Assembly (NCBI RefSeq): GCF_055900595.2
Contig: NZ_CM148325.1
Strand: one strand, 5' to 3'
DNA: 64,000 bases
A program made the translations under genes and the position numbers. Below the pieces are notes generated by a model. The model was not told the origin of the DNA, did no database searches, and worked only from the letters and a program-made list of their open reading frames with translations. Below, piece by piece: positions 1,950 to 26,922 of this stretch (within the stretch, counting starts at the first letter, position 1; each line of letters starts with the position of its first letter).

Positions 1950-4949
1950 TTGATTGGCAAATTTCGTTTGTTACCGAAAAAATTAACCACAAAGAAAAAA
2001 CATGAATCCCAAAATGGACACGTCCACTTTTCTAATCCTAAACGAGCAGCCGACCATTTATTTAATAATTTTGATCTGATACCAGAGTTTCGTATTATTG
2101 GTGACTTCCCGGTTGATAGTCACATTATCTCTGCACTATGGATTAACATGGTCGGGCATAAATTTGATGCCAGCTTAGATAACTGTTGCTATGGCGCGCG
2201 GCTAAAGCGTATTCGTAATGATGAATTATTTAGCAATGAGCAGGATAATCCATTCCATATCAGTGCAGTGGGTTCTTTTAGCCCCTACTTCCAGCCCTAC
2301 CAAAAATGGCGTGGTGATGGCTTAAAAGCTATACGTGACGAGTTGGAAAAAGATCGTGACATTATCGCCGCCTCACTGGATTTAAAAAGTTACTATCATT
2401 TTATTGATCCACTGGCTATAACCTCTGATGATCTCTATAACACACTAAACATAAAACTGACTGAGGATGAAAAAGCGTTTACTGCACAGTTAGCAGTATT
2501 CTTAAAGCACTGGTCTGACGGCGCAGCGGCATTTGGAAAGAAAATAGCGTACAAAACACCTGTTATTAATGGTGGTCTGGTCATTGGATTAACAGCCAGT
2601 CGGATCATTTCAAATATATTGCTACACCATTGGGATAAATTAGTCATTGAAAAACTATCACCAATTCACTACGGTCGTTATGTCGATGATATGTTCCTTG
2701 TAATACGCGATACAGGGAAAATTACTAATAATCACGAATTTATGTTATTGCTGCAAGATAGGCTTGGCAATGATTGCGTTTATTTGAAAAACGAGCAAAA
2801 ACAAATATGGCAAATACAGCAGGGCGAGCATTTCCAGGGTAAGACCACCATCCAGTTACAATCCGATAAGCAAAAACTTTTCGTGCTTCAAGGGAGGGCT
2901 GGAATAGACCTGCTCGACAGTATCGAAAAGGAGATCTACGAGCTTTCTAGTGAACACCGCTTGATGCCTTCACCGGATCAACTGGAACACTCAACCGCAG
3001 CTAAAGTCCTTTCCGCTGCCGGTAGTGTAGGTGAAAATGCCGATACTCTGCGCCGTGCAGATGGATTAACCATTCGTCGTTTGGGCTGGTCACTGCAATT
3101 ACGCTACGTTGAAACACTGGCACGAGATCTGCCTCCAAGTGAATGGAAAGAACAGCGGGAAGAGTTTTATCAGTTTGCCTACAACCATATTCTTAGGGCT
3201 GATAATCTATTTGCACATTTTAGTTATCTGCCAAGGCTGCTTGGCTTTGCTATCAGTATGAATGAATGGCAGCACGCGGAAACAATTGTACTTAAAGCTT
3301 ACGAATCCATCAACCTGTTGGCATCGGTGATTACTTCAGGTAAGGAAGTGAATATAAATGGTTGCAAAACTCGAGCAGTAAATGATCTTTGGCGCTGTAT
3401 AAAAGGCACATTAAGCTGGCTATTTGTTGATGCAGCGACACGATATTACAGTCCTGACAGATTATTTCTTGATAAACGTTCAAAGAAAGAAGAGTGCCTT
3501 GCGGATACATTTTTTAATCATATTTCACAAAGTCTGACGAATCTAAAGGATTTACTGGATCTTCGCTTTGATTCAGCAGATTTTTATTTAAAAGCGCCAT
3601 TGGTAGCTCGAGCTGATTTAGCAAAGGAACCTTATAAACAGATCGTAAAGAGTCAGTCGGCAGAAAAACTTGTTAATCAGCGTGATAGTAAAAAAGAAGT
3701 TAAAATACTGAAATTAATGAGCGACTCATCGCTTATTGATATTGACGTTATTAAGCTATTTTTGAAATCAACCAAGAATACCCGACTGGAAAAAGTGGCT
3801 AAAGGAAATCGTAAGAACGAAAGTTACCTACCTTACATTTTCCCTACACGTCCTTTAACACCCGCTGAAATATCAGAACTGGCCCCCGAATGTGTTGGAT
3901 TACCCTCCACATCCGACAAAAAACCAGATGAGAGACCGTCCACCATTTGGGCAAAATATACTCAAGCATTACGCGGAGTATGGATCAAACCGACGTTGCT
4001 AGCATCGGAGCAGGACTCAGATGAAGCGACAAAAAAAGCTCGGCCTAAGAAATTCATTCATATTGGCACAGACAGGAAACATAAAGTTGTCGTTGCGCTA
4101 ACCAGCATTAAAACAGAGGAGGACGACTGGGCTAAAATGGCCTGCAATAAATCTAACTTGTCCCGTTCAAGGTACCAGCGGATTTCTGAACTGGTTAATG
4201 CAACATTGAAACTATCTCCTAAACCTGATTATGTTTTATTCCCTGAGCTTTCAATCCCGTTACGCTGGGTTAACAGTATTGCTGATCGTTTGAGTTCGGC
4301 GGGTATCAGTCTAATTGCGGGAACAGAATACCGCCACTTAGACGATAATCAACTGAAGAGTGAGGCCGTACTTGTCCTTTCAGATAACAGACTCGGCTAT
4401 CCAGCGAGTGTCAAAATATGGCAACCCAAGCTGGAACCCGCCGTAGGTGAAGATGAGGCATTATTTTCAACTTATGGTAAGTCTTGGGACTCGACACTTA
4501 ATGTTAAACAACGTAAGCCGGTATATATTCATCATGGCGTCAATTTTGGCGTTATGATTTGCTCTGAACTCCAGAATAGTAAAGCGAGGATCCGTTTTCA
4601 GGGCGCACTCGATGCATTAATGGTATTGAGCTGGAATAAAGATCTAGATACGTTTGCATCGTTGATTGAATCAGCAGCGCTGGATATTCATGCCTATACT
4701 ATTTTAGTGAATAACCGAAAATACGGCGATAGTCGCGTACGTTCCCCGGCAAAAGAACCCTTTATGCGTGATATTGCTCGTGTGAAGGGCGGTGATAATG
4801 ACTTTGTGGTCGCTGCAACGCTGGATATCGACTCGTTAAGGGCATTTCAGAGCAGGGCAAAACGCTGGCCTAAAGGCGGCGATAAATTCAAACCGTTACC
4901 TGAAGGATTCCAGTTGGCAAAGAACCGCAAAAAGCTACCGCCAAAATAA
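1950..4949 (+). CDS. Reverse transcriptase fused to C-terminal nitrilase/C-N hydrolase domain (DRT type 1 / UG1-like); 5' end probably truncated by IS1
   Basis: RT motif A ASLDLKSYYHFID and motif C RYVDDMFLV; C-terminal FPELS...GVMICSELQ (Glu and Cys of nitrilase triad); first start is TTG and frame stays open back to IS1 edge. Confidence 0.7.
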   Translation: MIGKFRLLPKKLTTKKKHESQNGHVHFSNPKRAADHLFNNFDLIPEFRIIGDFPVDSHIISALWINMVGHKFDASLDNCCYGARLKRIRNDELFSNEQDNPFHISAVGSFSPYFQPYQKWRGDGLKAIRDELEKDRDIIAASLDLKSYYHFIDPLAITSDDLYNTLNIKLTEDEKAFTAQLAVFLKHWSDGAAAFGKKIAYKTPVINGGLVIGLTASRIISNILLHHWDKLVIEKLSPIHYGRYVDDMFLVIRDTGKITNNHEFMLLLQDRLGNDCVYLKNEQKQIWQIQQGEHFQGKTTIQLQSDKQKLFVLQGRAGIDLLDSIEKEIYELSSEHRLMPSPDQLEHSTAAKVLSAAGSVGENADTLRRADGLTIRRLGWSLQLRYVETLARDLPPSEWKEQREEFYQFAYNHILRADNLFAHFSYLPRLLGFAISMNEWQHAETIVLKAYESINLLASVITSGKEVNINGCKTRAVNDLWRCIKGTLSWLFVDAATRYYSPDRLFLDKRSKKEECLADTFFNHISQSLTNLKDLLDLRFDSADFYLKAPLVARADLAKEPYKQIVKSQSAEKLVNQRDSKKEVKILKLMSDSSLIDIDVIKLFLKSTKNTRLEKVAKGNRKNESYLPYIFPTRPLTPAEISELAPECVGLPSTSDKKPDERPSTIWAKYTQALRGVWIKPTLLASEQDSDEATKKARPKKFIHIGTDRKHKVVVALTSIKTEEDDWAKMACNKSNLSRSRYQRISELVNATLKLSPKPDYVLFPELSIPLRWVNSIADRLSSAGISLIAGTEYRHLDDNQLKSEAVLVLSDNRLGYPASVKIWQPKLEPAVGEDEALFSTYGKSWDSTLNVKQRKPVYIHHGVNFGVMICSELQNSKARIRFQGALDALMVLSWNKDLDTFASLIESAALDIHAYTILVNNRKYGDSRVRSPAKEPFMRDIARVKGGDNDFVVAATLDIDSLRAFQSRAKRWPKGGDKFKPLPEGFQLAKNRKKLPPK

Positions 4950-5295: not shown

Positions 5296-5766
5296 ATGGC
5301 TACAATCCTCACCACTGACAGCGATTTACTCGATCTATTGACCGTCCCCTTCAATGCCACCACGGATTTCACTGTCCTTGCTGACTACTGCGCCCGCTTT
5401 GCCGAAACCCTGATTGAAACCGACGATCCCGCGCTACGACTGGCGCTCTGCGGGCGGCTTCACGCGGCTCTTGCGCTATTGCAACCCACACTACACGACC
5501 CCATCCCACCGCATCTTACCGAAAGCCTGACCGTGGATACCCTTCCCGCCACACCAGAGCACTTTATTTCCGAACCTGATTCCTTGTGCGAATACTGCCT
5601 CGCACTACTCCAGCTTCTGCTGGAACGTCCGGCGGAACCAAAAATGGAGCAAACCCTGACCGGGCTGCTGTGTGAGCTGGTCTGGTATTTCACGGAAGGA
5701 CTCAAAGCCCCGCGCTGGATGCGTACCGCCGACGGCGTAAAATTTATCAGCGAGGTGGCCGCATGA
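5296..5766 (+). CDS. Hypothetical acidic protein (paralog at 52023-52487)
   Basis: 156-aa ORF with GGAGG RBS 7 nt upstream; second diverged copy in window. Confidence 0.6.
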   Translation: MATILTTDSDLLDLLTVPFNATTDFTVLADYCARFAETLIETDDPALRLALCGRLHAALALLQPTLHDPIPPHLTESLTVDTLPATPEHFISEPDSLCEYCLALLQLLLERPAEPKMEQTLTGLLCELVWYFTEGLKAPRWMRTADGVKFISEVAA

Positions 5767-5903
5767 TGCAACAGGACTGGCATTCCGCCGACATTATTGC
5801 GGTGCTGAAAAAGCGGGGAACGCCTCTGGCGGCACAGAGAAAAACTCATTGCGGAAGCGCTGTAAATATCGCCAGAAATCATCTGGTCCTCAAGGTACTT
5901 TGA
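5763..5903 (+). pseudogene. Ner/Nlp-like DNA-binding protein, N-terminal remnant
   Basis: MMQQDWHSADIIAVLKKRGTPLAA resembles the Ner/Nlp N-terminus, then frame degenerates; overlaps integrase fragment. Confidence 0.35.
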
Positions 5904-6103
5904 TAGCAAAGGCAAGCTGGCTGGTTCAGTCCGGAGTCTCTCTTCTTGCACTTAAAGAGATGGGAGGATGGGAAACTCTCAAAAAGGTTCAGAGATACGC
6001 TCACCTTTCAGCCGGGCATCTCACCGAGCACGCAAGCAAAATCGGCACGATCATAAGTCGCAATGGCACAAATACGGCACAGGAGGAAGCGTGGTGTATT
6101 TAA
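5849..6103 (+). pseudogene. Tyrosine integrase C-terminal fragment
   Basis: LLALKEMGGWETLKKVQRYAHLS is a typical recombinase C-terminus with catalytic Tyr region; no N-terminal domains upstream. Confidence 0.6.
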
Positions 6104-6126
6104 ATATGGGGTAACTACTTGATTTA

Positions 6127-6145
6127 AATGGTGCGATAATAGGAA
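6127..6145. repeat. att core repeat: partial direct copy of thrW 3' end (matches 26845-26864)
   Basis: AATGGTGCGATAATAGGA vs AATGGTGCCGATAATAGGA at the tRNA 3' end, 18 of 19 identical. Confidence 0.6.
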
Positions 6146-6206
6146 CAATACACATAGGCGATAAGCTTTGTTTTTGTTGCCTTTTTTATTGTTCATTTTT
6201 TATAGA

Positions 6207-6227
6207 TACCCCCAAAAGTACCCCCAT
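6207..6227 (+). repeat. TACCCCCAAAAGTACCCCCAT motif near attR (copy also at 26714-26734 near attL/int promoter)
   Basis: 21-bp motif present once near each end of the element in the same orientation; possible integrase arm-type site. Confidence 0.4.
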
Positions 6228-6345
6228 ATCTTTTTCCGCCCCTGAAATTTGGTTGTTATTCATACAGCATATCAGGCGGTAACGCTCTCCCTTTAACCCA
6301 CTTATTGTATGATAGTGCTATCCCACAATAAGGAATCAGCCAGCC

Positions 6346-6705
6346 ATGAGAATGACCAGCCGTAAAAAAGAGATACTCAGTTATTTTGAGCCGGATAACC
6401 TAGAATGGGTGACAGGTGAGATTGGTGCGCCGCCGTTCGATGTGTCGGGCGTGGCCTACCTGCTTCATGGCATGGTGTCGTTCGATAAGCGCCACCAGCT
6501 CGAATCAACCCGGCGCACACTGGAAAGCATGGTTGCTGGTGGACTGCTTGAGCGGGTGACAGTGTATGAATCGCGTCAGGTACGGCGCGGCGGTGAGACT
6601 AACGCAACGGTCGTGCGCTACGGTTTACCCGGTCACTGCGCTGTTATGCGCGATACTGGCGGCGCTGATAACGCAATATCAGGCGAATACATGCGGGTCA
6701 GTTAA
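6346..6705 (+). CDS. Hypothetical protein
   Basis: 119-aa ORF, AAGGAA RBS 8 nt upstream; inverted repeat TTATTGT(N16)ACAATAA in promoter region. Confidence 0.5.
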   Translation: MRMTSRKKEILSYFEPDNLEWVTGEIGAPPFDVSGVAYLLHGMVSFDKRHQLESTRRTLESMVAGGLLERVTVYESRQVRRGGETNATVVRYGLPGHCAVMRDTGGADNAISGEYMRVS

Positions 6706-7240
6706 GAGCCTGCAATCTGTCGTTAATGTTGTTCAGGTCGTAAACCCGGCGTTCAATATCCAGCATCAGGAAATCGTGGATCTCGGCCTGTTCAGGATTA
6801 TCAGACTCTCTGGCCTGTAAGAGCAATTCATTGTAACCATGCAAACCACCCGAATTTTCCGCCGGGGTAGTGCCCTTCCCGCGCAAACAGCTAACAGGCT
6901 GGATACTGGTATCATGTGTTTGCTTCTCCAGCACAACAAGGCAATCCCACCAGTCGCCAAAGTCATACGTGTAAACCAGCTTGTCACCCTCATTCTGGAG
7001 CGCCGCCCATAGTGGCGTGATTGCCGCGTTACCCATGCTTTCATCCTCACCCCATACGCGATACTCGCTACCTGGATCACCTTTACGCCCTTTCTCGAAC
7101 ATATACAGGTGTTCGTCATTCCAGCCAAAAGCTAACTGGATCACGGCATGAAGTTTACTAAAGGGGATTTGCTCTGGAACCAGCACACGCCGCCATATTG
7201 GTGGTTTGCTGTCTCGGATGGTTATCTTTATCTGGTACAT
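6698..7240 (-). CDS. pRiA4b ORF-3-like family protein
   Basis: N-terminus MYQIKITIRDSKPPIWRRVLVPEQIPFSKLHAVIQLAFGWNDEHLYMF matches the characteristic start of this family. Confidence 0.6.
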   Translation of the reverse strand: MYQIKITIRDSKPPIWRRVLVPEQIPFSKLHAVIQLAFGWNDEHLYMFEKGRKGDPGSEYRVWGEDESMGNAAITPLWAALQNEGDKLVYTYDFGDWWDCLVVLEKQTHDTSIQPVSCLRGKGTTPAENSGGLHGYNELLLQARESDNPEQAEIHDFLMLDIERRVYDLNNINDRLQALN

Positions 7241-7283
7241 GCGTCGTGAACCAATAGTGTACGTTTAGGTGGGTATTTTTCTG

Positions 7284-7718
7284 CTACTGACCAGGATAGA
7301 GCTGATGTGCCGGGTCAAGCCAGACAATATGGAATACATTACCGATGAAAAATCCATGTATGCGACCATATTCATTGCGCGATATGGCAAATTGATAAGG
7401 TGTATAACTCTGAAACTGTTCATTCAAATGCTGAAATCCCTTAGGTTCAGATGTAGTTTGCCAATCAATCGGATGTGACTTCAACGAACCACCGCGATCG
7501 GTGGTGAACTCTCGTTCAGTCATAGTGGAAAGGTCTTTGAGGCGGTCTAACACCTTGCAAAAATAAACAGGATTCTGAGCGCTGAAAGTAAATTTCTCAT
7601 GCGCCGCATCGATATACCGAAAAGAAAAGTTGATGGTCGTTATGCCTGAACCTGTTCCCCCAGGCACTATTTTTGTTTGCGAGGGTGCAATCTTCGACGC
7701 CCTGATTCTTTTCGCCAT
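7284..7718 (-). CDS. Hypothetical 144-aa protein, candidate toxin/effector partner of Panacea-domain protein
   Basis: ORF starts 2 nt after the stop of the upstream Panacea gene; no recognisable motif. Confidence 0.5.
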   Translation of the reverse strand: MAKRIRASKIAPSQTKIVPGGTGSGITTINFSFRYIDAAHEKFTFSAQNPVYFCKVLDRLKDLSTMTEREFTTDRGGSLKSHPIDWQTTSEPKGFQHLNEQFQSYTPYQFAISRNEYGRIHGFFIGNVFHIVWLDPAHQLYPGQ

Positions 7719-7720
7719 AT

Positions 7721-8176
7721 TTAGGAAGCCATCGAACGATAAAACTCAGCCGTTACACTTTTATCAATAACATTCTTGCACGGCGCATCTGATGGAACCC
7801 CTTCACGGGCCTCCAGCCACGGCTTTTCTTGGTGCGTCATCTGCTCCAGCTCATAAGCTGTATAACCGCCAAATACCTCATAGATTTCCTTTAGATGCTT
7901 TGACACATTCGCAGGTAACTCAGGGCAGGCAATCTCTTCGTCTATTGAGCGCCATTTGTAATCTGCAAATCTGGTATACAAATCTCTGGCTACAGGGCCA
8001 TGTACCCATGCTTCAAACTTGTCAGCAACCAGTTCTTCGCCATCATTCAGCGCCATGAACCAAGCATCAGCATAGAACACCATTTTTTGCAGTTTCAGCG
8101 GCGTCATAACATCCCCATGCTCTTGAGCAAAGCAAAGCAGGTAATCCGCTACGCTGTTAAGGGTTGTAACTGCCAT
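7721..8176 (-). CDS. Panacea-domain protein (DUF4065, GepA/SocA-like antitoxin family)
   Basis: MTPLKLQKMVFYADAWFMAL...EAWVHGPV...YELEQMTHQEKPWLEAREG pattern; start moved to internal ATG at 8176 with AGGAG RBS. Confidence 0.75.
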   Translation of the reverse strand: MAVTTLNSVADYLLCFAQEHGDVMTPLKLQKMVFYADAWFMALNDGEELVADKFEAWVHGPVARDLYTRFADYKWRSIDEEIACPELPANVSKHLKEIYEVFGGYTAYELEQMTHQEKPWLEAREGVPSDAPCKNVIDKSVTAEFYRSMAS

Positions 8177-8497
8177 TATCCAATCTCCTGCCGTATGTTT
8201 TCGTCTATAACTGTCCACTACCGTTAATAATCGCATATAACCACGGGTATTGCCCATCGTAAAATGCCATTTAAAGATTCTGCGTGATGGCTCACCATCC
8301 ACCGCGCAAGATACCCGGTGCGTTTGGCTGATAATCCGCAATTTGGTTGAAACCGTCCTGGAAACCTCAAGTTTGGAAACCAGCGACTTGCATCGTAGCT
8401 TTGCCATTCGGCGGTCATAGTTACTGCTATATCCCTTTATTGGCGAGACCTGCGAGAGGTTTTGTTGTTCGAATATATAAAGGTGAATAAAGGTAAT

Positions 8498-8980: not shown

Positions 8981-9262
8981 CTACCTTTGCCTCTTGCCGC
9001 CATTTAACCGGAAGGCGTTACCGTTCGGTTGCGCTATCCCCATGCGGTGTTGCGTTTCGGTAACAGCTTTATGCAGGTCGCCAAATTCCTCAACCTTCAC
9101 GGGCGGGCGCTTCACGTTCTCCAGACACGTTTCACGGCGGCGCTTTATCCATTCCCGATCATCGTCCTCGCTGCATAACAGCATGACTTCCATCCATCGT
9201 GCGGCAGCTCTCCGGTATAGCCCTTTTGACACCAGCTCTTCAGCTTTCCTGTCCCTTATCAT
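8981..9262 (-). CDS. PerC-like small transcriptional activator
   Basis: 93-aa ORF; AEELVSKGLYRRAAARWMEVM resembles the PerC family N-terminus as I recall it. Confidence 0.45.
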   Translation of the reverse strand: MIRDRKAEELVSKGLYRRAAARWMEVMLLCSEDDDREWIKRRRETCLENVKRPPVKVEEFGDLHKAVTETQHRMGIAQPNGNAFRLNGGKRQR

Positions 9263-9521: not shown

Positions 9522-9977
9522 ATGGTCTTTGCAATGAGCAAATCTAATCTGGTCGCGTTCCGCATCCCATCTGAATTGCAGGATGAGTTTAATCGGTCTG
9601 TTCTCGCTTCTGGAGGGGATAAAACCTCCTGGCTTGTTGATGCGATTCGCATGAAGCTGGGACAGCCGGAAAAGTCTATTGATTCACGAATGTTTGGGCT
9701 GGTGGAGCGCATGGAAAAAGCTGCTGCGTCGCTTATTGCCGGAAAGCCGAACATCCCACCAAAGCCATATAACGAAACGGCAGTTATAAAGATCATTGCC
9801 GATACCATCCGACAGGGATTTGATAATGGGCGTGTGATAGCTGAACGGATCAATGAAGCAGGCTATCAAACAAAAGCTGGTAAAGCGTGGGATAAAGATA
9901 TTTACAGCGCGTGGAAGCGTCAGGGAAGCAATGCTGAAAAGTTAAAAGCGGTGATTGATTGTAAGGTCAGCGTATAA
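9522..9977 (+). CDS. Putative DNA-binding protein (ribbon-helix-helix-like N-terminus)
   Basis: 151-aa ORF; N-terminal VAFRIPSELQDEFNRS...WLVDAIRMKLG resembles RHH regulators. Confidence 0.5.
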   Translation: MVFAMSKSNLVAFRIPSELQDEFNRSVLASGGDKTSWLVDAIRMKLGQPEKSIDSRMFGLVERMEKAAASLIAGKPNIPPKPYNETAVIKIIADTIRQGFDNGRVIAERINEAGYQTKAGKAWDKDIYSAWKRQGSNAEKLKAVIDCKVSV

Positions 9978-10056
9978 ACATGAGTGCCCATTGGAAAGCT
10001 GCTTGGGCCAATACCTTTATACACCAGCAGGTGGTGACGATAGGTGAGGATCAGGA

Positions 10057-10278
10057 ATGAAAGGCAGAACGCCACACATTGAACATCAAGCCAACCACTT
10101 CTCGGATGTTCGCAATGAGATGATTGCCATTCGCGGTGATATGCACGGCTTGGAGCGTCGAATTATTGATAAGATTGATGAAAATAGAGATAAGGCCAGT
10201 GAAAATCAAAAGTGGATCATCGGCCTGTTGATTTTATCAATTCTTATCCCGCTACTTATCGCATTGGTCACAAAATGA
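10057..10278 (+). CDS. Small membrane protein, XhlA-like (C-terminal transmembrane helix)
   Basis: 73-aa ORF with charged N-terminal region and C-terminal WIIGLLILSILIPLLIALV helix. Confidence 0.4.
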   Translation: MKGRTPHIEHQANHFSDVRNEMIAIRGDMHGLERRIIDKIDENRDKASENQKWIIGLLILSILIPLLIALVTK

Positions 10279-10304
10279 ATATCCAATGTGTATGCTGTCG
10301 ATGC

Positions 10305-10329
10305 TACGCGCGCGTACTTGTCGCAAAAT
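10305..10329 (+). repeat. CG-palindrome motif copy 2: TACGCGCGCGTA + CTTGTCGCAAAAT
   Basis: Direct repeat of motif at 8912 and 10591. Confidence 0.6.
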
Positions 10330-10590
10330 ATCAGGCAAAGGCCAGATTCAGAACGTCGTGATAACCACCAGCACAACATGAGATGTCATGTAACGCGATT
10401 TATCACGTCAGATACATGTGATTGGTGTACCCGCATAAAACATTGTCATAGCGCGTCCTGTGCGCATATACGCCGATAATCAACACATCACCACCACTCT
10501 GTCTCATGTAGAGAACACTTTTATGGTATCCCCCGCCATCGTGTGCGTACTGGTCGGACGCAGTTGCAAAAAATTTTGCAACTGATACCC

Positions 10591-10615
10591 CTCGCGCGCG
10601 TACTTGTCTCGAAAT
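10591..10615 (+). repeat. CG-palindrome motif copy 3: CTCGCGCGCGTA + CTTGTCTCGAAAT, preceded by perfect hairpin 10561-10583
   Basis: Direct repeat; adjacent 11-bp-stem hairpin CAGTTGCAAAA/TTTTGCAACTG. Confidence 0.6.
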
Positions 10616-10822
10616 TGGTGTTTTGCTGTGGCAGTGATATCAGAAAAATCTTCCTGTTTCACATAAAGCGGATATGCGCGTACTGTAACGGCCCCATCAA
10701 CTGGGAGCGGATTTGAGCCCCGAATGTGTAGGCAATGTCACTTAACGTTTGTCGCATACCTTCCAGAAAAAGCGATTCATGAATAATAGGGGCATGAATG
10801 CCCGGCGTACCGGGCTTATTAG

Positions 10823-11521
10823 TTAATTTGGTGCTTTAGGGTCAACATTAAAAGTTATATCACCTTCTGTATTTTTCCCGGCATAGCTAGCGGCTATTCT
10901 CGCCAACCCTTTGTAATCAGCAATTCCATCAGACTGTTGCGAGACGACTGAGCTACCAACTTTCCATAACATATTAATCTGCCGATTATTGAGATAAGCC
11001 TTGGCATCAAACGACTGGAGTATCACCCCTGCGCCGTAGAACGTGTCCGTCACAGTTGTGTTATACGCGCCAGTAATTCCATAAGTAGGCGTATAAACTG
11101 TTGTTGCCGTTCCAGTGGTATTAGCTGTACCGTAGCCACCACCATAACTATTGAACGTGGTGTTCGAGTTTCCGTACGTTGTTGCTGAGCTCACACCAGT
11201 TTGCCCGTATATTGGGATGGTTACATTACGAGTATTTGAAATGGCCCCGCTTCTCAAAAAGTTCAAGAGAATTACCTGGTCAGCCAATTTTTCATCTTTA
11301 ACTTGTGTATATCCTTGGCTTGATAAACTGGCGGCTACTACCGTAGCTATTTGAGTGTATTCAATCTGTTTGGTGTTCCAAAGTTCTTGGCTTGCGGGGA
11401 TGATCAAGAACTTCTTACCGACAGATTGCCCGGAAGATAAAGCATTGACCGTTACTAACGGTTTTTGTACGCATCCAGCCAATAATGACAGGGATAATAT
11501 TAAAAGAAGATTTTTAATCAT
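10823..11521 (-). CDS. Lipoprotein (signal peptide with lipobox LLAGC)
   Basis: MIKNLLLILSLSLLAGCVQ... lipobox; Gly/Thr/Tyr-rich mature region. Confidence 0.7.
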   Translation of the reverse strand: MIKNLLLILSLSLLAGCVQKPLVTVNALSSGQSVGKKFLIIPASQELWNTKQIEYTQIATVVAASLSSQGYTQVKDEKLADQVILLNFLRSGAISNTRNVTIPIYGQTGVSSATTYGNSNTTFNSYGGGYGTANTTGTATTVYTPTYGITGAYNTTVTDTFYGAGVILQSFDAKAYLNNRQINMLWKVGSSVVSQQSDGIADYKGLARIAASYAGKNTEGDITFNVDPKAPN

Positions 11522-11671: not shown

Positions 11672-14398
11672 CTATTCCCATTCGCTAACATCTTTCATGC
11701 CACTGAGGGTAGCTACAATCCCGGCCCTTGTCAGTTTCACGAATTCTTCAGCCCCAACGGCATCACGAATTGCTTTCATGGCAATTTTATTGGCCGAAAA
11801 TCGTTTCTCTGCTGCGGCGATCGCTGCTGGTGATGCCCCTGCGCGCACTGCTTTTGTAGCTTCCTGAACGGCTTTCTCTATCGCATATCGACCACTTCTT
11901 GTCGCCCCAATCTTAGCCACAGCATTTCTTAGCGCGCCACCAGCAACCAAACCACTAATCGAACCAATTACACCACCGCCAAAGCCTCCAGCGATCGCAC
12001 CTGACTGTTGAACACCGTTCATAATCACGCCGACGATCTTTGGAAGGCCTGAATCGAGCGTTTTGAGAGCCTCAGTTGTTCTTCCCGTGCGCTCTACGTA
12101 TCGCTGCGGTCTGGTACTGGCTTTAGCGAGTACACCGAACTCTTTCATCATTCTACCGAGATCTGGCGCATGACGACTGATGGCGTTTACATTCTGCTGG
12201 GTCATGAGCTTGGCAAAATACTGGATACCTGACTCTTCACCGATTCCTCCCTTCTCTCCCTGCGCCACAGCATGCTGAAGAATAGATGCTATTGCAGGTT
12301 GGCGTTCTGCTTCCGGCAGCGCGGAGATAAGACGGTGAAAAGCTCCCGTTCCAGTGTTTGCGGATGCCTTAAGCGTATCGGCACCTTTTCTTACCATAGC
12401 GTCTGATGCGAGATCTCGACCAAAAACAGATTCGGCATTTTGTTTGGCGATAATGTAACTTTTAGAGAGATCGTTAGCTTTCTGCCATTCTGTGAGGAAG
12501 TTTCCTTTTTCAGCCATGATGCGCATGTCATCAGTGATAGCTCTGCGCATTTCTCCGGCAATCCGGGCGGCATTGGCCTTACCTGCCCGGGTGTTTGCTT
12601 GTTCAGCATCAGCAAACTTAGCACGCCATGCCTTCATCCCGTCGAAGGTTATGCCGCCACCTTGGTTGTTGGCAGCCTGAAACTGTTTCATCTCCGGGCT
12701 GAGTGGAACATTGGCTGCTTTTTCTGCTTGGACGACAGCCATTCCATTACTCATTTTCATCCTTTCGCGTGGCATCGTGCTTCGCAGTTCTGCCCATGCC
12801 ATATTCTCTGCTGTTTTCATATCACTGAGGCTCGCGATGATGCGCTCTTTAATTGCTGCGCTTTTTTCTGATGCGCTTCCAGACTCAGCACCGAAATCAG
12901 ACAACTGCTTATTCAACTTTGAGGATATTTCATTGAAGGCCGTAAGGTGAGCATCCTGAACATTCCCAGGAGTTGATGCCAGAACACCTTCTGCTTGGGC
13001 AATTCCACGACTACCTGAGCGCATTCCAGGCGTCAGGGTGTTGATATTAATACCAGTGATTTTCGCCGCCTTAGCGACATCATCTCTGACGTTTGATGCC
13101 TGCGATGCGATATGCTCTCGGCCTACGGCAGAACGCGCTGCTTTCGATACATCATTGGCGGTTTCCAGAGTATTTGCTGCCCCTAACACATGGCCTGATT
13201 GATTTGTATTACTCCGCAATACATCTCGCATTACGTCACTGGCTGTCTGTCCGCTCTTTATTAAAGCGCGTGCTCCTAGCGATCCTGCTAGGCCAATACC
13301 TGTCTCTTTTGCTAGGTCTTCTGGGCTGATCTGCCCGTTCTTTTGGGCGTTCACCAATGTACCTGGCAGGTTTTCTGCCAACATACTAGCCACCTTTGTG
13401 GCCGCACGTTCAGCACGTGGAGCGTTGGCAACTGAAGAAGCTGCGGTAGCTGCCTTTCCTGCACCTAATCCTGTAATAAGGTAAGGTGCTAGCTGCTCAC
13501 CAGCCTGCGCGTATGGATCTGTAGGTTGGTCTACTGGGCGAAAGACAGGTGATATGGGCGTGTATGTGCCATCACCCACACCAAGCTTCTGAGCTGCCCA
13601 TGCTCCGGCTGATTGCGCCGCATTGACTACCCCCACGCCTGCGTCCATTACATCAAACGGTATATTAGCAATCCCTCTGGCCATCTGCTCTGGCGCAGCT
13701 TTCAGTCCTGGCGAAAGATATTCCATCTCAGGATTAAGGTTAGACTTGGCTACTTGCTGCTGCGGTTCCCCGGCATTTTCATCGGCGAGAAACTGAGCTC
13801 TTTTCTGCTCCCATGAACTGGCTGTTGGTAGTCCTGCTTCTATGTTCTTAAATTGCTGACGTTTTGCTTCCCATGCAGAAATATCTCCCACCTGAGAGAT
13901 TTCTTTATCAAGCTCTGAGTAGTCAGGCTGCTGAAGATTGCGATGTTGACTGGTTTGTGCAAACTGCAAGATTTCACTGTCATCAGGGATTATTCCGGCA
14001 TCTGCAAATTTACTTACGTAATTAGCCGTTTCATCTGGCAGTGTAGATTTACCGTTTCTGACGGCATTAATACGAGCATAGCCAGAATTATACCCAGCCA
14101 ATGCCATACCTATATCACCAAATCGCTTCATTCCTTTATTGAGATGGTTTGCTGCGATATCCATTTGCTTTTCAAATGGCAGTGAGCGCGGATCTGTTCC
14201 ACGATAACCAGCATCACTCATTACTGAGGGCATCAGTTGAGCAAATCCTCTAGCTCCTTTCGGTGACTCGGCACTTCCGTTACCACTAGATTCATTGCCA
14301 ACTAATGTTTCCATCGTCCCTGATGGGAAACCATATTTTTCATCGAGATGACGGGAATAGGCTTTCTGTTTTTCTGTCAGTTGTGCCATCATTGCCAT
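11672..14398 (-). CDS. Phage internal virion/ejection protein with N-terminal lytic transglycosylase (SLT) domain
   Basis: 908 aa; SLT motifs ES(catalytic)...GARGFAQLMP...AGYNSGYAR near the N-terminus. Confidence 0.8.
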   Translation of the reverse strand: MAMMAQLTEKQKAYSRHLDEKYGFPSGTMETLVGNESSGNGSAESPKGARGFAQLMPSVMSDAGYRGTDPRSLPFEKQMDIAANHLNKGMKRFGDIGMALAGYNSGYARINAVRNGKSTLPDETANYVSKFADAGIIPDDSEILQFAQTSQHRNLQQPDYSELDKEISQVGDISAWEAKRQQFKNIEAGLPTASSWEQKRAQFLADENAGEPQQQVAKSNLNPEMEYLSPGLKAAPEQMARGIANIPFDVMDAGVGVVNAAQSAGAWAAQKLGVGDGTYTPISPVFRPVDQPTDPYAQAGEQLAPYLITGLGAGKAATAASSVANAPRAERAATKVASMLAENLPGTLVNAQKNGQISPEDLAKETGIGLAGSLGARALIKSGQTASDVMRDVLRSNTNQSGHVLGAANTLETANDVSKAARSAVGREHIASQASNVRDDVAKAAKITGININTLTPGMRSGSRGIAQAEGVLASTPGNVQDAHLTAFNEISSKLNKQLSDFGAESGSASEKSAAIKERIIASLSDMKTAENMAWAELRSTMPRERMKMSNGMAVVQAEKAANVPLSPEMKQFQAANNQGGGITFDGMKAWRAKFADAEQANTRAGKANAARIAGEMRRAITDDMRIMAEKGNFLTEWQKANDLSKSYIIAKQNAESVFGRDLASDAMVRKGADTLKASANTGTGAFHRLISALPEAERQPAIASILQHAVAQGEKGGIGEESGIQYFAKLMTQQNVNAISRHAPDLGRMMKEFGVLAKASTRPQRYVERTGRTTEALKTLDSGLPKIVGVIMNGVQQSGAIAGGFGGGVIGSISGLVAGGALRNAVAKIGATRSGRYAIEKAVQEATKAVRAGASPAAIAAAEKRFSANKIAMKAIRDAVGAEEFVKLTRAGIVATLSGMKDVSEWE

Positions 14399-15708
14399 CC
14401 CTTAAGTTTTGCCTGATAGTAACTTTCCGGCAGATAGCCATGTGCGGTCACATAATCCTTAACCAGTGAAGGATCCTGCAACAGCATTTTGGTATCAGTT
14501 TCTTCGTCCTTAGATTTGGTTACAGGAATACCGAGCCCGGCAATCTGTCGTTTCTGCATTCGAATAATTACGTCCTGCGCTTTATTCAACTCTCGCAAAA
14601 ATGCCTCATTGCTGGTTGCTGACTTAATGCCATTTTGAGATTGCATAAGGGCAGCCCTTTCCCCTTCGGTTGGGTTAGAGCCAAAAGTCCCTTTGAGGCT
14701 AGGCAGAATAACCTTTAGGTTGTATTCATCAGCTTTGGCGCGTAGGCTTCGTGTGTCTTCTGCTACATCAGGAAGGAATCCAAACCCCAGCGTCAGGGGG
14801 TTATAGTTCTGCGAGCGGGTAACGGCCGAAGGATGTTTCCCTACAATTCCCGCCAGTTCATGACCCACTTCAAGCGCAGAGTTCAAGGAGTCGATGTTAC
14901 CTGCAACAGTATTAATTTTATCGTTCATCTTCTCCACTTTCGCCTGCTGTATCTTGCTCAGTTCAGCATTGAGCTTGTCTCTCTCGATGTCATTTTGAGC
15001 ACGTCCAAGTCGTGCTTTCAGAACCATTTCTCTCGTGCGTAGTTGGTTATCGGATAGGACTTTGAACTGCTCCATATCGAGACGTCGATTACCCTGTTCC
15101 GCATTAACCTGAGCATTATATGCGGATGTATCTGCGTTCTGCTGTGCAATGCTCTGCCCTTGCTGCTTCTCTTGAACACTAAAGTAACTATTTGGATCAG
15201 CATGGAGGTGGATGAGGTCAGTGATTCTGTTGAATTCCTGTGGGTCATTCTGCCAAGACTGATAAACCTCTTCAGCAGGAAGACCAAATCGCTGTAATAC
15301 TGGATTTGCCTGCTGAATGGCCTTCTGCATGGTCAGTGGATCTCCAGTTTGTGACGCAAGACGCAGATTCATGGCAGCGTCAGCGGTCTGTCGATTTTGC
15401 TCAGCATCAATGAATCCCATCTGTTTTTGAGAATCAGCCATAAACTGGGGATACTGGGCCATTAACTTCTGCACGCCAACACGATCATTATTAGCTACCG
15501 CACTACCCAACCGTGCCTGATATTCTTTTAACTGCTGGGAAATTTGCGCCTGCTGATTAATCTCAGCAACGCCTCTTAGCCCCTGTAGCGCCATTAAACC
15601 TACGTTTGGCTGCTGCTGATACTGCACAGGCTGAGGAACGGAAGAACGAGGAGCATTATCATTTTGCGGTGCCATGCTAGGCAGCCCGCCAAGTTGCCAT
15701 GTCGCCAT
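14389..15708 (-). CDS. Phage internal virion/ejection protein (Gln-rich, coiled-coil)
   Basis: 439-aa ORF with start/stop overlap to neighbours in the same operon. Confidence 0.6.
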   Translation of the reverse strand: MATWQLGGLPSMAPQNDNAPRSSVPQPVQYQQQPNVGLMALQGLRGVAEINQQAQISQQLKEYQARLGSAVANNDRVGVQKLMAQYPQFMADSQKQMGFIDAEQNRQTADAAMNLRLASQTGDPLTMQKAIQQANPVLQRFGLPAEEVYQSWQNDPQEFNRITDLIHLHADPNSYFSVQEKQQGQSIAQQNADTSAYNAQVNAEQGNRRLDMEQFKVLSDNQLRTREMVLKARLGRAQNDIERDKLNAELSKIQQAKVEKMNDKINTVAGNIDSLNSALEVGHELAGIVGKHPSAVTRSQNYNPLTLGFGFLPDVAEDTRSLRAKADEYNLKVILPSLKGTFGSNPTEGERAALMQSQNGIKSATSNEAFLRELNKAQDVIIRMQKRQIAGLGIPVTKSKDEETDTKMLLQDPSLVKDYVTAHGYLPESYYQAKLKGWQ

Positions 15709-16385
15709 TAGAATCCAAGCCCCCCAACAAGACCAATAAGCCCACCACCAATAGCGCCGGCCGCAGTTCCTATTCCAGGAACAACGGAACCAAGTTGCGC
15801 ACCCGCTAAAGCGCCTGATGCTGCCCCACCAATACCACGCGCAAGACTGGATGGCTGCTGCGCCTGACCTGCACGAATAGCGCCAAGCCCCTGCAAGAGT
15901 TGTCCGGTATTATTGGCGTAGTTTTGCCCTGCCGTTGCCTGCCCTGATGCCGCATTCATCCCGACATTTAGCAGGTTTCCATAATTTTGCATTTGCCCAC
16001 TGAGCCAATTGTTATAAAGCATGGGCGCAATGGAAGATAACTGGTTACTGGTAGCTGTTGAGCCAAGCCCCCCGGTAGCTTCTGCTGAGACAAGGTTCTG
16101 ATAACGGGCCTGATCTGCCTGTGTTTTATATAAACCAGAACCAAAGAAATCATTCGCGGCTTTATTCTGCCCTTCCAGAGTCATCAGTCCTTGTAGTTGT
16201 TGTAAAGCAGGCAATCCGACTTCTGCATACGGCTTGAGATTATTCATCACCGTATTCCACTGCTCGCGCTGCAAATCAATTGCCTGCTGCTGGGCCTTCG
16301 CCTGAGCTTTAGAGGCACCACCATCACCGCCTTTTTCGTATACGGCACGATTGAGATGTTTATGAGCTATGTGGGTAATTAACAT
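15708..16385 (-). CDS. Phage internal virion/ejection protein with Gly-rich hydrophobic C-terminus
   Basis: 225-aa ORF, overlaps neighbours by 1 and 7 nt. Confidence 0.6.
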   Translation of the reverse strand: MLITHIAHKHLNRAVYEKGGDGGASKAQAKAQQQAIDLQREQWNTVMNNLKPYAEVGLPALQQLQGLMTLEGQNKAANDFFGSGLYKTQADQARYQNLVSAEATGGLGSTATSNQLSSIAPMLYNNWLSGQMQNYGNLLNVGMNAASGQATAGQNYANNTGQLLQGLGAIRAGQAQQPSSLARGIGGAASGALAGAQLGSVVPGIGTAAGAIGGGLIGLVGGLGF

Positions 16386-25466: not shown

Positions 25467-26681
25467 TCATGCGTGTTTTTCAAACACCATATGCACCACA
25501 TTTCCGCCATGCTCGAGAGAATCCATATAGTCGGCATACCATTGAAGCATCTCCCGCCTTCCATCCAGATATTGCGCATGGTTGTATGTGCCACGAATTG
25601 AGTTCTTATCAACGTGAGCGAGCTGCGTTTCTATCCACGCGGTGTTATAGCCCTGCTCATGCAAAATCGTACTCATAGTGTGCCGGAACCCATGACCAGT
25701 TACACGTCCAGCGTAGCCAATGCGCTTAAACACTTGGTTTATGCTGGCCTCGCTCATTGTTTTCCTTGGATCATTGCGCCCGGGAAACATAAGAGGGTAA
25801 TTGCCTGTTATTTCTCTAATCTTCCCAATAAGCGAAAGAGCCTGCTCAGACAATGGCACAATATGAGGCCGCCGCATTTTCATACGTGAAGCGGGTATCT
25901 CCCAGATAGCCTTGTTGAAATCAATTTCATCCCATAATGCGCCACGTAGTTCGCCAGTCCGCAAGCCGGTGATAATCAGTAGACGAGCCGCCATAACAAC
26001 CAATGCGCTTCCTGAGTAACTGGACAATGCCTTGAAAAAATCAGGTAATTCTTTGGCTGTAAGGAAAGGGTAATGATTAGATTCATGGCCTTGCATCGCG
26101 CTAGTAAGGTCTGGTGCAGGGTTATACTCTGCGCGACCAGTGACTATTGCATAGCGGAAAACTTCCCCGCACCGTTGCCTCACTTTTTTGGCTTTTTCTG
26201 TAGCACCGCGCCCCTCGATGCGACGCAGCACATTCAGAAGTTCAAGTGGTTTGATTTCGGCGATGGGTTTTTTGCCAATGTAAGGGAACACATCTTTGTT
26301 GAAGGCTTCGAGGATGTCTGAAGCATAACCAGCAGACCATTTTTTTAATTTGCTGCTGTGCCACTCAAGGGCAATATCTTTGAAGGTGTTGTTTAACTGC
26401 GTTTCCCGGGCAATCTTTTCCTCTCGTTTCGCTTCCATCGGATCGATACCACCAGCGATACCTCTTTTCGCATCTTCACGTTTTGCCCGAGCATCGGCTA
26501 GAGTAACCTCAGGATAAACACCTAGTGCCAATAGCTTCTCTTTACCAGCTACACGATATTTAAGTCGCCAGTATTTACCTCCATTAGGTTTTACCAAGAG
26601 ATACAAACCGCCACCATCGGCCAGCTTGTAAGCCTTCTCTTTTGGCTTGGCTGTGTCTATTTGACGGGCATTGAGTTTCAC
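25467..26681 (-). CDS. P4-type tyrosine integrase
   Basis: 404 aa; MKLNARQIDTAKPKEK... N-terminus, C-terminal HGFRHT...H..Y catalytic region; adjacent to tRNA. Confidence 0.9.
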   Translation of the reverse strand: MKLNARQIDTAKPKEKAYKLADGGGLYLLVKPNGGKYWRLKYRVAGKEKLLALGVYPEVTLADARAKREDAKRGIAGGIDPMEAKREEKIARETQLNNTFKDIALEWHSSKLKKWSAGYASDILEAFNKDVFPYIGKKPIAEIKPLELLNVLRRIEGRGATEKAKKVRQRCGEVFRYAIVTGRAEYNPAPDLTSAMQGHESNHYPFLTAKELPDFFKALSSYSGSALVVMAARLLIITGLRTGELRGALWDEIDFNKAIWEIPASRMKMRRPHIVPLSEQALSLIGKIREITGNYPLMFPGRNDPRKTMSEASINQVFKRIGYAGRVTGHGFRHTMSTILHEQGYNTAWIETQLAHVDKNSIRGTYNHAQYLDGRREMLQWYADYMDSLEHGGNVVHMVFEKHA

Positions 26682-26846: not shown

Positions 26847-26922
26847 TGGTGCCGATAATAGGAGTCGAACCTACGACCTTCGCATTACGAATGCGCTGCT
26901 CTACCAACTGAGCTATATCGGC
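26847..26922 (-). tRNA. thrW: tRNA-Thr (anticodon CGU)
   Basis: Reverse complement GCCGATATAGCTCAGTTGGTAGAGCAGCGCATTCGTAATGCG...TATCGGCACCA; anticodon loop TTCGTAA. Confidence 0.9.

Follow-up and report, generated by a model that had tools for sequence, protein, structure and literature searches.

The last gene of an approximately 20.7-kb island at thrW encodes a 119-aa protein (6346-6705, + strand), points inward and is preceded by an inverted repeat, which raises the question of what this repeat does and what, if anything, binds it. Within the window, by which we mean the whole 64-kb stretch of DNA analysed here, the motif TTATTGT-N16-ACAATAA was confirmed on the + strand at 6302-6331 (TTATTGTATGATAGTGCTATCCCACAATAA), where an earlier sequence-only reading had placed it, and the repeat was found to be larger than that reading had noted. 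The repeat finder returned arms of 15 nt each (6301-6315 and 6318-6332, 13 of 15 positions complementary), giving a 32-nt dyad at 6301-6332, CTTATTGTATGATAG-TG-CTATCCCACAATAAG, composed of two 13-nt half-sites around a 4-nt centre with a flanking C/G pair. The left half-site (6302-6314, + strand) reads TTATTGTATGATA, for which the family consensus is TTAWTGTRKGATA, the right half-site (6319-6331) reads TTATTGTGGGATA on the minus strand, and the centre (6315-6318) is GTGC in the window. Read from the sequence, the left arm contains a -10-like hexamer, TATGAT (6308-6313, + strand), as a putative promoter element, whilst the Shine-Dalgarno sequence AAGGA (6330-6334, + strand) shares its first bases with the outer end of the right arm; the 3' end of the dyad thus lies inside the ribosome-binding site, 14 nt 5' of the ATG at 6346. 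TTATTGT-N16-ACAATAA occurs only once in the 64-kb window and was recovered in 0 of 100 dinucleotide-preserving shuffles, and neither further copies of the dyad nor an excess of half-sites was found elsewhere in the window. With a single dyad present, there is no sign of the 119-aa protein controlling other island promoters through such a site, an absence that fits a self-contained unit of gene and site. The dyad is predicted, and in our judgement probably serves, as the operator of the 119-aa protein encoded downstream of it, through which that protein would repress its own gene.

A complete tRNA-Thr(CGU) gene lies at 26847-26922 on the minus strand, a P4-type integrase gene at 25467-26681, and an imperfect copy of the thrW 3' end, with one C missing, at 6129-6145. 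The assignment of the latter as attR by the sequence-only reading is correct, since an island-free strain has the same flank abutting thrW directly. Between the att core and the dyad, the attR arm contains a terminator-like stem-loop and T-run (6156-6192, + strand), which would keep transcription entering from the left flank from reaching the 119-aa gene. The island itself (6129-26922) is a mosaic, in which a P4-type integrase, AntA, Ash and a DUF927/Toprim primase-helicase occur together with P22-type DNA-ejection proteins (11672-16385: gp7, an injectosome translocase and a 908-aa SLT-domain protein), a mix that is unusual for a satellite-like island. Outside the island, a C-terminal integrase fragment (5849-6103; PF00589, E = 8.8e-05, below the Pfam cut-off) is situated 26 nt before the attR copy and, with an uncharacterised 156-aa ORF (5296-5766), may be a remnant of another element. 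Between the ykgM/ykgO paralogues and the island, beside an IS1 copy (IS1-like ORFs at 1135-1832), lies a gene for a 999-aa reverse transcriptase-nitrilase fusion (1950-4949, + strand), which PADLOC assigned to RT_UG5-nitrilase, a DRT defence system (E = 7.7e-288).

Alignment of the upstream regions of 18 genome loci and 19 viral-contig loci revealed that the dyad opens a conserved 45-nt leader block (6301-6345, + strand), whose 5' end is exactly where islands inserted at different sites become homologous. This block was retained in about 40 related loci, even where the encoded protein shared only 52-67% identity, and its 45 nt, from dyad to ATG, were nearly invariant in sequence. The DNA 5' of CTTAWTGT was unrelated between insertion-site types (thrW, dinD and others), and the dinD-inserted islands resemble the window from 6301/6302 onward, where the dyad has its first base. 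The dinD-inserted islands (L001 and L002, 3911-5910) lie between two 825-nt dinD genes and appear to carry a replacement copy of their target gene. Across 25 distinct block sequences, and in the distant loci L053, L055, L061 and L062, dyad span and spacing were identical, whilst among 18 distinct dyads the four central bases varied freely at constant length, with no insertions or deletions. In these 18 sequences the left half-site was variable only at positions 4 (A/T), 9 (T/G) and 13, and the right half-site at positions 4, 8, 9 and 11-13 independently of the left arm, with either of two bases chosen per arm at positions 4, 8 and 9. The stronger conservation of the left arm points to a constraint on it beyond symmetric binding; of the 18 distinct blocks, 14 have TATGAT as the hexamer within this arm and 4 have TAGGAT. 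Of 5,426 complete E. coli genomes, 372 contain both block and gene, and relatives occur in islands across Enterobacterales and in some temperate phages. A scan of viral contigs with the 17-mer TATCCCACAATAAGGAA gave 27 matches, eight of which lacked both the left arm and the family gene, consistent with chance. The sequence-only reading had held that a repeat not conserved in homologous loci would argue against its regulatory role; the repeat was kept at every homologous locus examined and in distant homologues as well.

A profile search of 1.8 billion representative proteins returned only 90 clusters with members of the 119-aa family, which is therefore small, and DNA was examined for ten distant members (HMM E-values 1e-12 to 1e-28). 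Within 200 nt upstream of these genes, exact TTAWTG-N17/18-CAWTAA was present at 4 of the 10 loci compared to an expectation of 0.0025, and at 8 of the 10 compared to 0.68 when up to two mismatches were allowed. The proximal copies start 32-57 nt before the start codon, mostly at 40-44 nt, in line with the -44 of the window. L053 carries TTATTGCA-N14-TACATTAA in the same 30-nt geometry, abutting the ribosome-binding site, with a good promoter (TTGACA-N17-CATTAT) overlapping the left arm. In L061 the dyad is TTATTGTAGGATA-GTTC-TCACCTACATTAA, again with a 4-nt centre, and a weaker repeat of it lies about 64 nt further upstream. TTAATGTACAA-N7-TTGTACATTAA occurs as two perfect copies 41 bp apart in L052 and as one in the related L056. 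In L055 and the Klebsiella phage vB_KpnP_ZX1 (L062), CTTATTGAC-N14-GTTGATAAG occupies the same 32-nt span and TTGACC-N18-TAAGAT lies inside the dyad arms. Fusion of the right arm to the Shine-Dalgarno sequence, as ..CAWTAAGGAG, recurs in L052, L053 and L061, and in these distant homologues the outer dyad and its spacing were kept whereas TATGAT was not. No recognisable dyad was detected at the most distant homologues, L057 and L058. The dyad travels with the 119-aa family through unrelated genomic contexts. In vB_KpnP_ZX1 (record 10040-11264), L055 and L058 an anti-repressor gene directly follows the family gene, and in the first two of these the family gene stands behind the dyad-overlapped promoter, with a terminator-like hairpin just upstream of that promoter.

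The 119-aa protein had no match in Pfam, PHROGs, PADLOC or NCBIfam, none to curated MarR, ArsR, PadR or Fur family models, and none below E = 1 in a PDB profile search. Structure prediction gave a moderate model of a winged-helix DNA-binding fold, with a helix-turn-helix followed by a beta-hairpin wing, and its structural matches included MarR (5h3r), FabT (6jbx) and ArsR (6j0e). All family-invariant residues named here (E53, S54, R56, R57, T58 and L59) fall within helix 49-64, in the place of the recognition helix, and the RRTL motif persists in those distant homologues that retain the outer half-site, making the RRTL helix and the outer half-site a candidate cognate protein-site pair. In the mechanism that we propose, a dimer of the 119-aa protein would bind the two TTAWTGTRKGATA half-sites, the 30-nt span also leaving room for two dimers. 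Bound protein would cover the DNA between a point slightly 5' of the -10-like TATGAT and the opening bases of the ribosome-binding site and, at a sufficient level, would thereby shut off its own transcription, a case of negative autoregulation. We infer that the 119-aa protein is the binder and that binding represses, and likewise the position of the transcription start. The suggestion of the sequence-only reading that the repeat is an operator is supported by the conserved arms, the free 4-nt centre, the fixed spacing and the lack of compensatory changes.

The same reading had set the repeat in a promoter and over a possible -10 region. TATGAT does lie inside the left arm, yet no -35 element accompanies it in any context; a strict sigma-70 scan of both strands across 5800-7400 returned 0 promoters, leaving the placement of the repeat in a promoter conjectural, and a search for a -35 upstream of TAKGAT gave no signal in 21 contexts (mean 2.33 matches, compared to 2.50 at random positions). 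A canonical sigma-70 promoter was looked for and not found by the strict scan or by this relaxed -35 search. In the relatives L053, L062 and L055, overlap of dyad and promoter is plausible from their sequences. It is improbable that the block is promoter and leader only, its symmetry arising from AT-rich promoter sequence or persisting as a relic with no bound regulator. The retention of TATGAT/TAGGAT in the close subfamily, the left arm as the best-conserved part and the resemblance of the arms to weak -35 and -10 hexamers (TTAWTG-N16-YACAWT) would all be explained by such a reading, but the distant homologues keep the outer dyad and spacing rather than TATGAT, promoter composition does not account for perfect 11-nt arms occurring twice in L052, and the 21 contexts lack a -35. 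Unlikely too, though to be taken more seriously, is that the palindrome acts as an RNA hairpin that masks the first bases of the ribosome-binding site or stabilizes the 5' end, possibly as a protein-bound translational operator, or that serves in termination or stabilization of minus-strand antisense transcripts arriving from the convergent genes. The fusion of the right arm to the Shine-Dalgarno sequence in nearly all family members accords with this, as does a terminator-like hairpin on the minus strand (6337-6362). The minus strand also folds better than shuffles (-21.3 kcal/mol, z = -2.95), because the A.C mismatch of the + strand becomes a G.U pair and the second hairpin forms across the start codon. 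The + strand, however, is no more stable than shuffles (z = -1.24) and has no U-run after the dyad, and diverged loci have lost the second minus-strand hairpin with no compensating changes. Among 20 distinct dyads, 80.8% of cells were paired compared to 80.2% in shuffles; the covariation score was 0.044 compared to 0.047, with 289 of 500 shuffles reaching the observed score; half of the distinct dyads lacked a pair at position 4, and no compensation accompanied the changes at positions 11-13. Such arms, varying independently without compensatory changes, disfavour a hairpin, and independent two-base variation in each arm is expected if a protein reads each arm, not of a conserved stem. The region had no Rfam match. 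The tandem copies further upstream in L052 and L061 are remote from ribosome-binding sites, a position that also favours DNA operators. The minus-strand hairpin at 6337-6362 consists of 11 pairs followed by ATTCCTTATT and spans the start codon of the 119-aa gene. Strong among close relatives (-11 to -14 kcal/mol) but absent from diverged loci, it may serve to halt antisense transcripts that run on from the convergent genes, or be fortuitous.

If the dyad is a protein-binding site on DNA, its reader might still be another regulator from the island or a helper phage (PerC-like, RHH-like or other), leaving the 119-aa protein with a different job. PerC (8981-9262), the 61-aa protein and an RHH-like ORF (9522-9977) are encoded near the dyad in the window, and the winged-helix assignment of the 119-aa protein rests on a moderate model, yet we give this option little probability. 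At the block-keeping loci L009, L011, L013 and L015-L017, 2-4 kb of flank showed neither PerC nor the 61-aa gene; both are absent as well from the dyad-keeping distant loci L052, L053, L055, L056, L061 and L062, and the window holds no second dyad, contrary to what the operator of a regulon would predict. The PerC-like and RHH-like binders that the sequence-only reading had put forward were absent from the fetched flanks at many dyad-keeping loci and from all distant phage loci, and no gene except the family gene downstream is found with every dyad. Least credible is a recombination or architectural role at the island end, with the dyad as an integrase arm, an excisionase-type site or a junction of module exchange. 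Its position 156 nt from the attR core, the start at its outer edge of homology between islands with different insertion sites, and the coordinates, by which the 119-aa gene would be divergent from int across attP in the excised circle, are what such a role would lead one to expect; against it, the identical dyad is shared by islands whose att arms and targets are unrelated (thrW, dinD and others), and it is also found in the midst of phage early operons, far from any att site. An att-arm or recombination directionality site was accordingly rejected, the dyad being independent of att type. Sites of the CRP, IHF and Ogr/Delta types were set aside as misfits in spacing or sequence, judged by eye against their consensus sequences.

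The reading that we prefer, an operator read by the product of its own gene, also bears on how the island end is organized. The 119-aa gene is convergent with a pRiA4b ORF-3 family gene (PF07929, 6698-7240), the two overlapping by 8 nt; beyond it follow a Panacea-domain pair (7284-8407), the 61-aa ORF and the PerC gene. The overlap is of 3' ends (6698-6705) with no terminator between them, such that transcripts of the 119-aa and pRiA4b ORF-3 genes would be mutually antisense. The Panacea-domain gene recognized by the sequence-only reading was verified at 7721-8407 (PF13274, E = 2.7e-17); counted from the first ATG that follows the preceding stop codon, this minus-strand ORF has 228 aa, but the identical gene of strain Survcare253 is annotated in RefSeq with 151 aa, and the Pfam match begins at residue 106, so the start codon is putative. 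Its 144-aa partner (7284-7718) gave weak matches only (PHROG 8366 and, below cut-off, NCBIfam MAG6450). Comparison of loci overturned the view of the 119-aa gene as cargo: block and gene form the constant unit of the island end, and it is the adjacent genes that change. Depending on the locus, these are pRiA4b ORF-3 (accompanied or not by a Panacea-domain pair), an M78 peptidase pair, DUF2280, an integrase or uncharacterized genes. The 61-aa gene and PerC often went undetected in the flanks of related loci. The pRiA4b ORF-3 gene was rejected as an obligate partner, as it is adjacent only in close relatives. The 119-aa, pRiA4b ORF-3 and Panacea-pair proteins of the window had no match in PADLOC, and for the 119-aa and pRiA4b genes a defence-system assignment was dropped on that basis; the literature searched on pRiA4b with phage, or on thrW, satellite and PerC, held nothing relevant.

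Between the winged-helix gene and the 61-aa and PerC genes lies a slot whose gene content differs by locus (6698-8407 in the window; L008-L018), and which looks like a cargo hotspot. The 119-aa gene marks the fixed edge of this variable slot, occupied in the window by the pRiA4b ORF-3 gene and a Panacea toxin-antitoxin pair, which helps to delimit cargo in such islands. A bolder and unlikely extension is that the operator and winged-helix gene form a fixed "bookend" of the cargo slot in integrase-bearing islands (thrW, dinD and other targets), with the protein tying the expression of neighbouring cargo or int to whether the island is integrated or excised and whether a helper phage is there. 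It draws on the predicted divergence of gene and int across attP in the excised circle and on the phage relatives that precede anti-repressor genes. If true, this would make the protein a previously undescribed master regulator for the island family. Autoregulation, for its part, provides a testable function for a family annotated only as "hypothetical", namely that of a predicted autoregulated DNA-binding regulator with a defined 32-nt site.

Three known arrangements invite comparison with this locus. The late promoters dependent on P2 Ogr and P4 Delta carry a TGT-N12-ACA dyad near -55, and the dyad described here likewise has TGT...ACA and occurs in a P4-type island. Unlike those sites, its spacing is N16 and it is also found outside P2/P4-type elements; as it ends 14 nt before the ATG, it cannot sit at -55 of the 119-aa gene. 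In the immI region of phage P22, the Arc and Mnt repressors act at the ant promoter. In vB_KpnP_ZX1, L055 and L058 the family gene is similarly a small unit immediately followed by an anti-repressor gene, and by analogy the layout in vB_KpnP_ZX1 and L055 would let a small autorepressor gate the anti-repressor. The 119-aa family, modelled as winged helix, differs in fold from Arc and Mnt, which belong to the ribbon-helix-helix proteins, and the gene in the window stands alone, followed by a convergent gene rather than an anti-repressor. Autorepressors of the MarR/ArsR winged-helix type have palindromic operators in their own promoter-leader regions, as E. coli MarR does at marO. The locus described here resembles them in pairing a small protein, winged-helix by its model, with an inverted repeat directly upstream of its own gene and reaching the ribosome-binding site, and the 119-aa protein would follow the same negative-feedback logic. 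It differs from them in that the 119-aa protein has no Pfam, NCBIfam, PHROG or PDB-sequence membership and shows no evident ligand-binding or MarR-type dimerization helices, and its dyad is longer than a typical MarR site (30-32 nt, with 13-nt half-sites). Overall, the arrangement is most likely a conventional autoregulatory regulator-operator pair, here belonging to an uncharacterized family of phage and island proteins.
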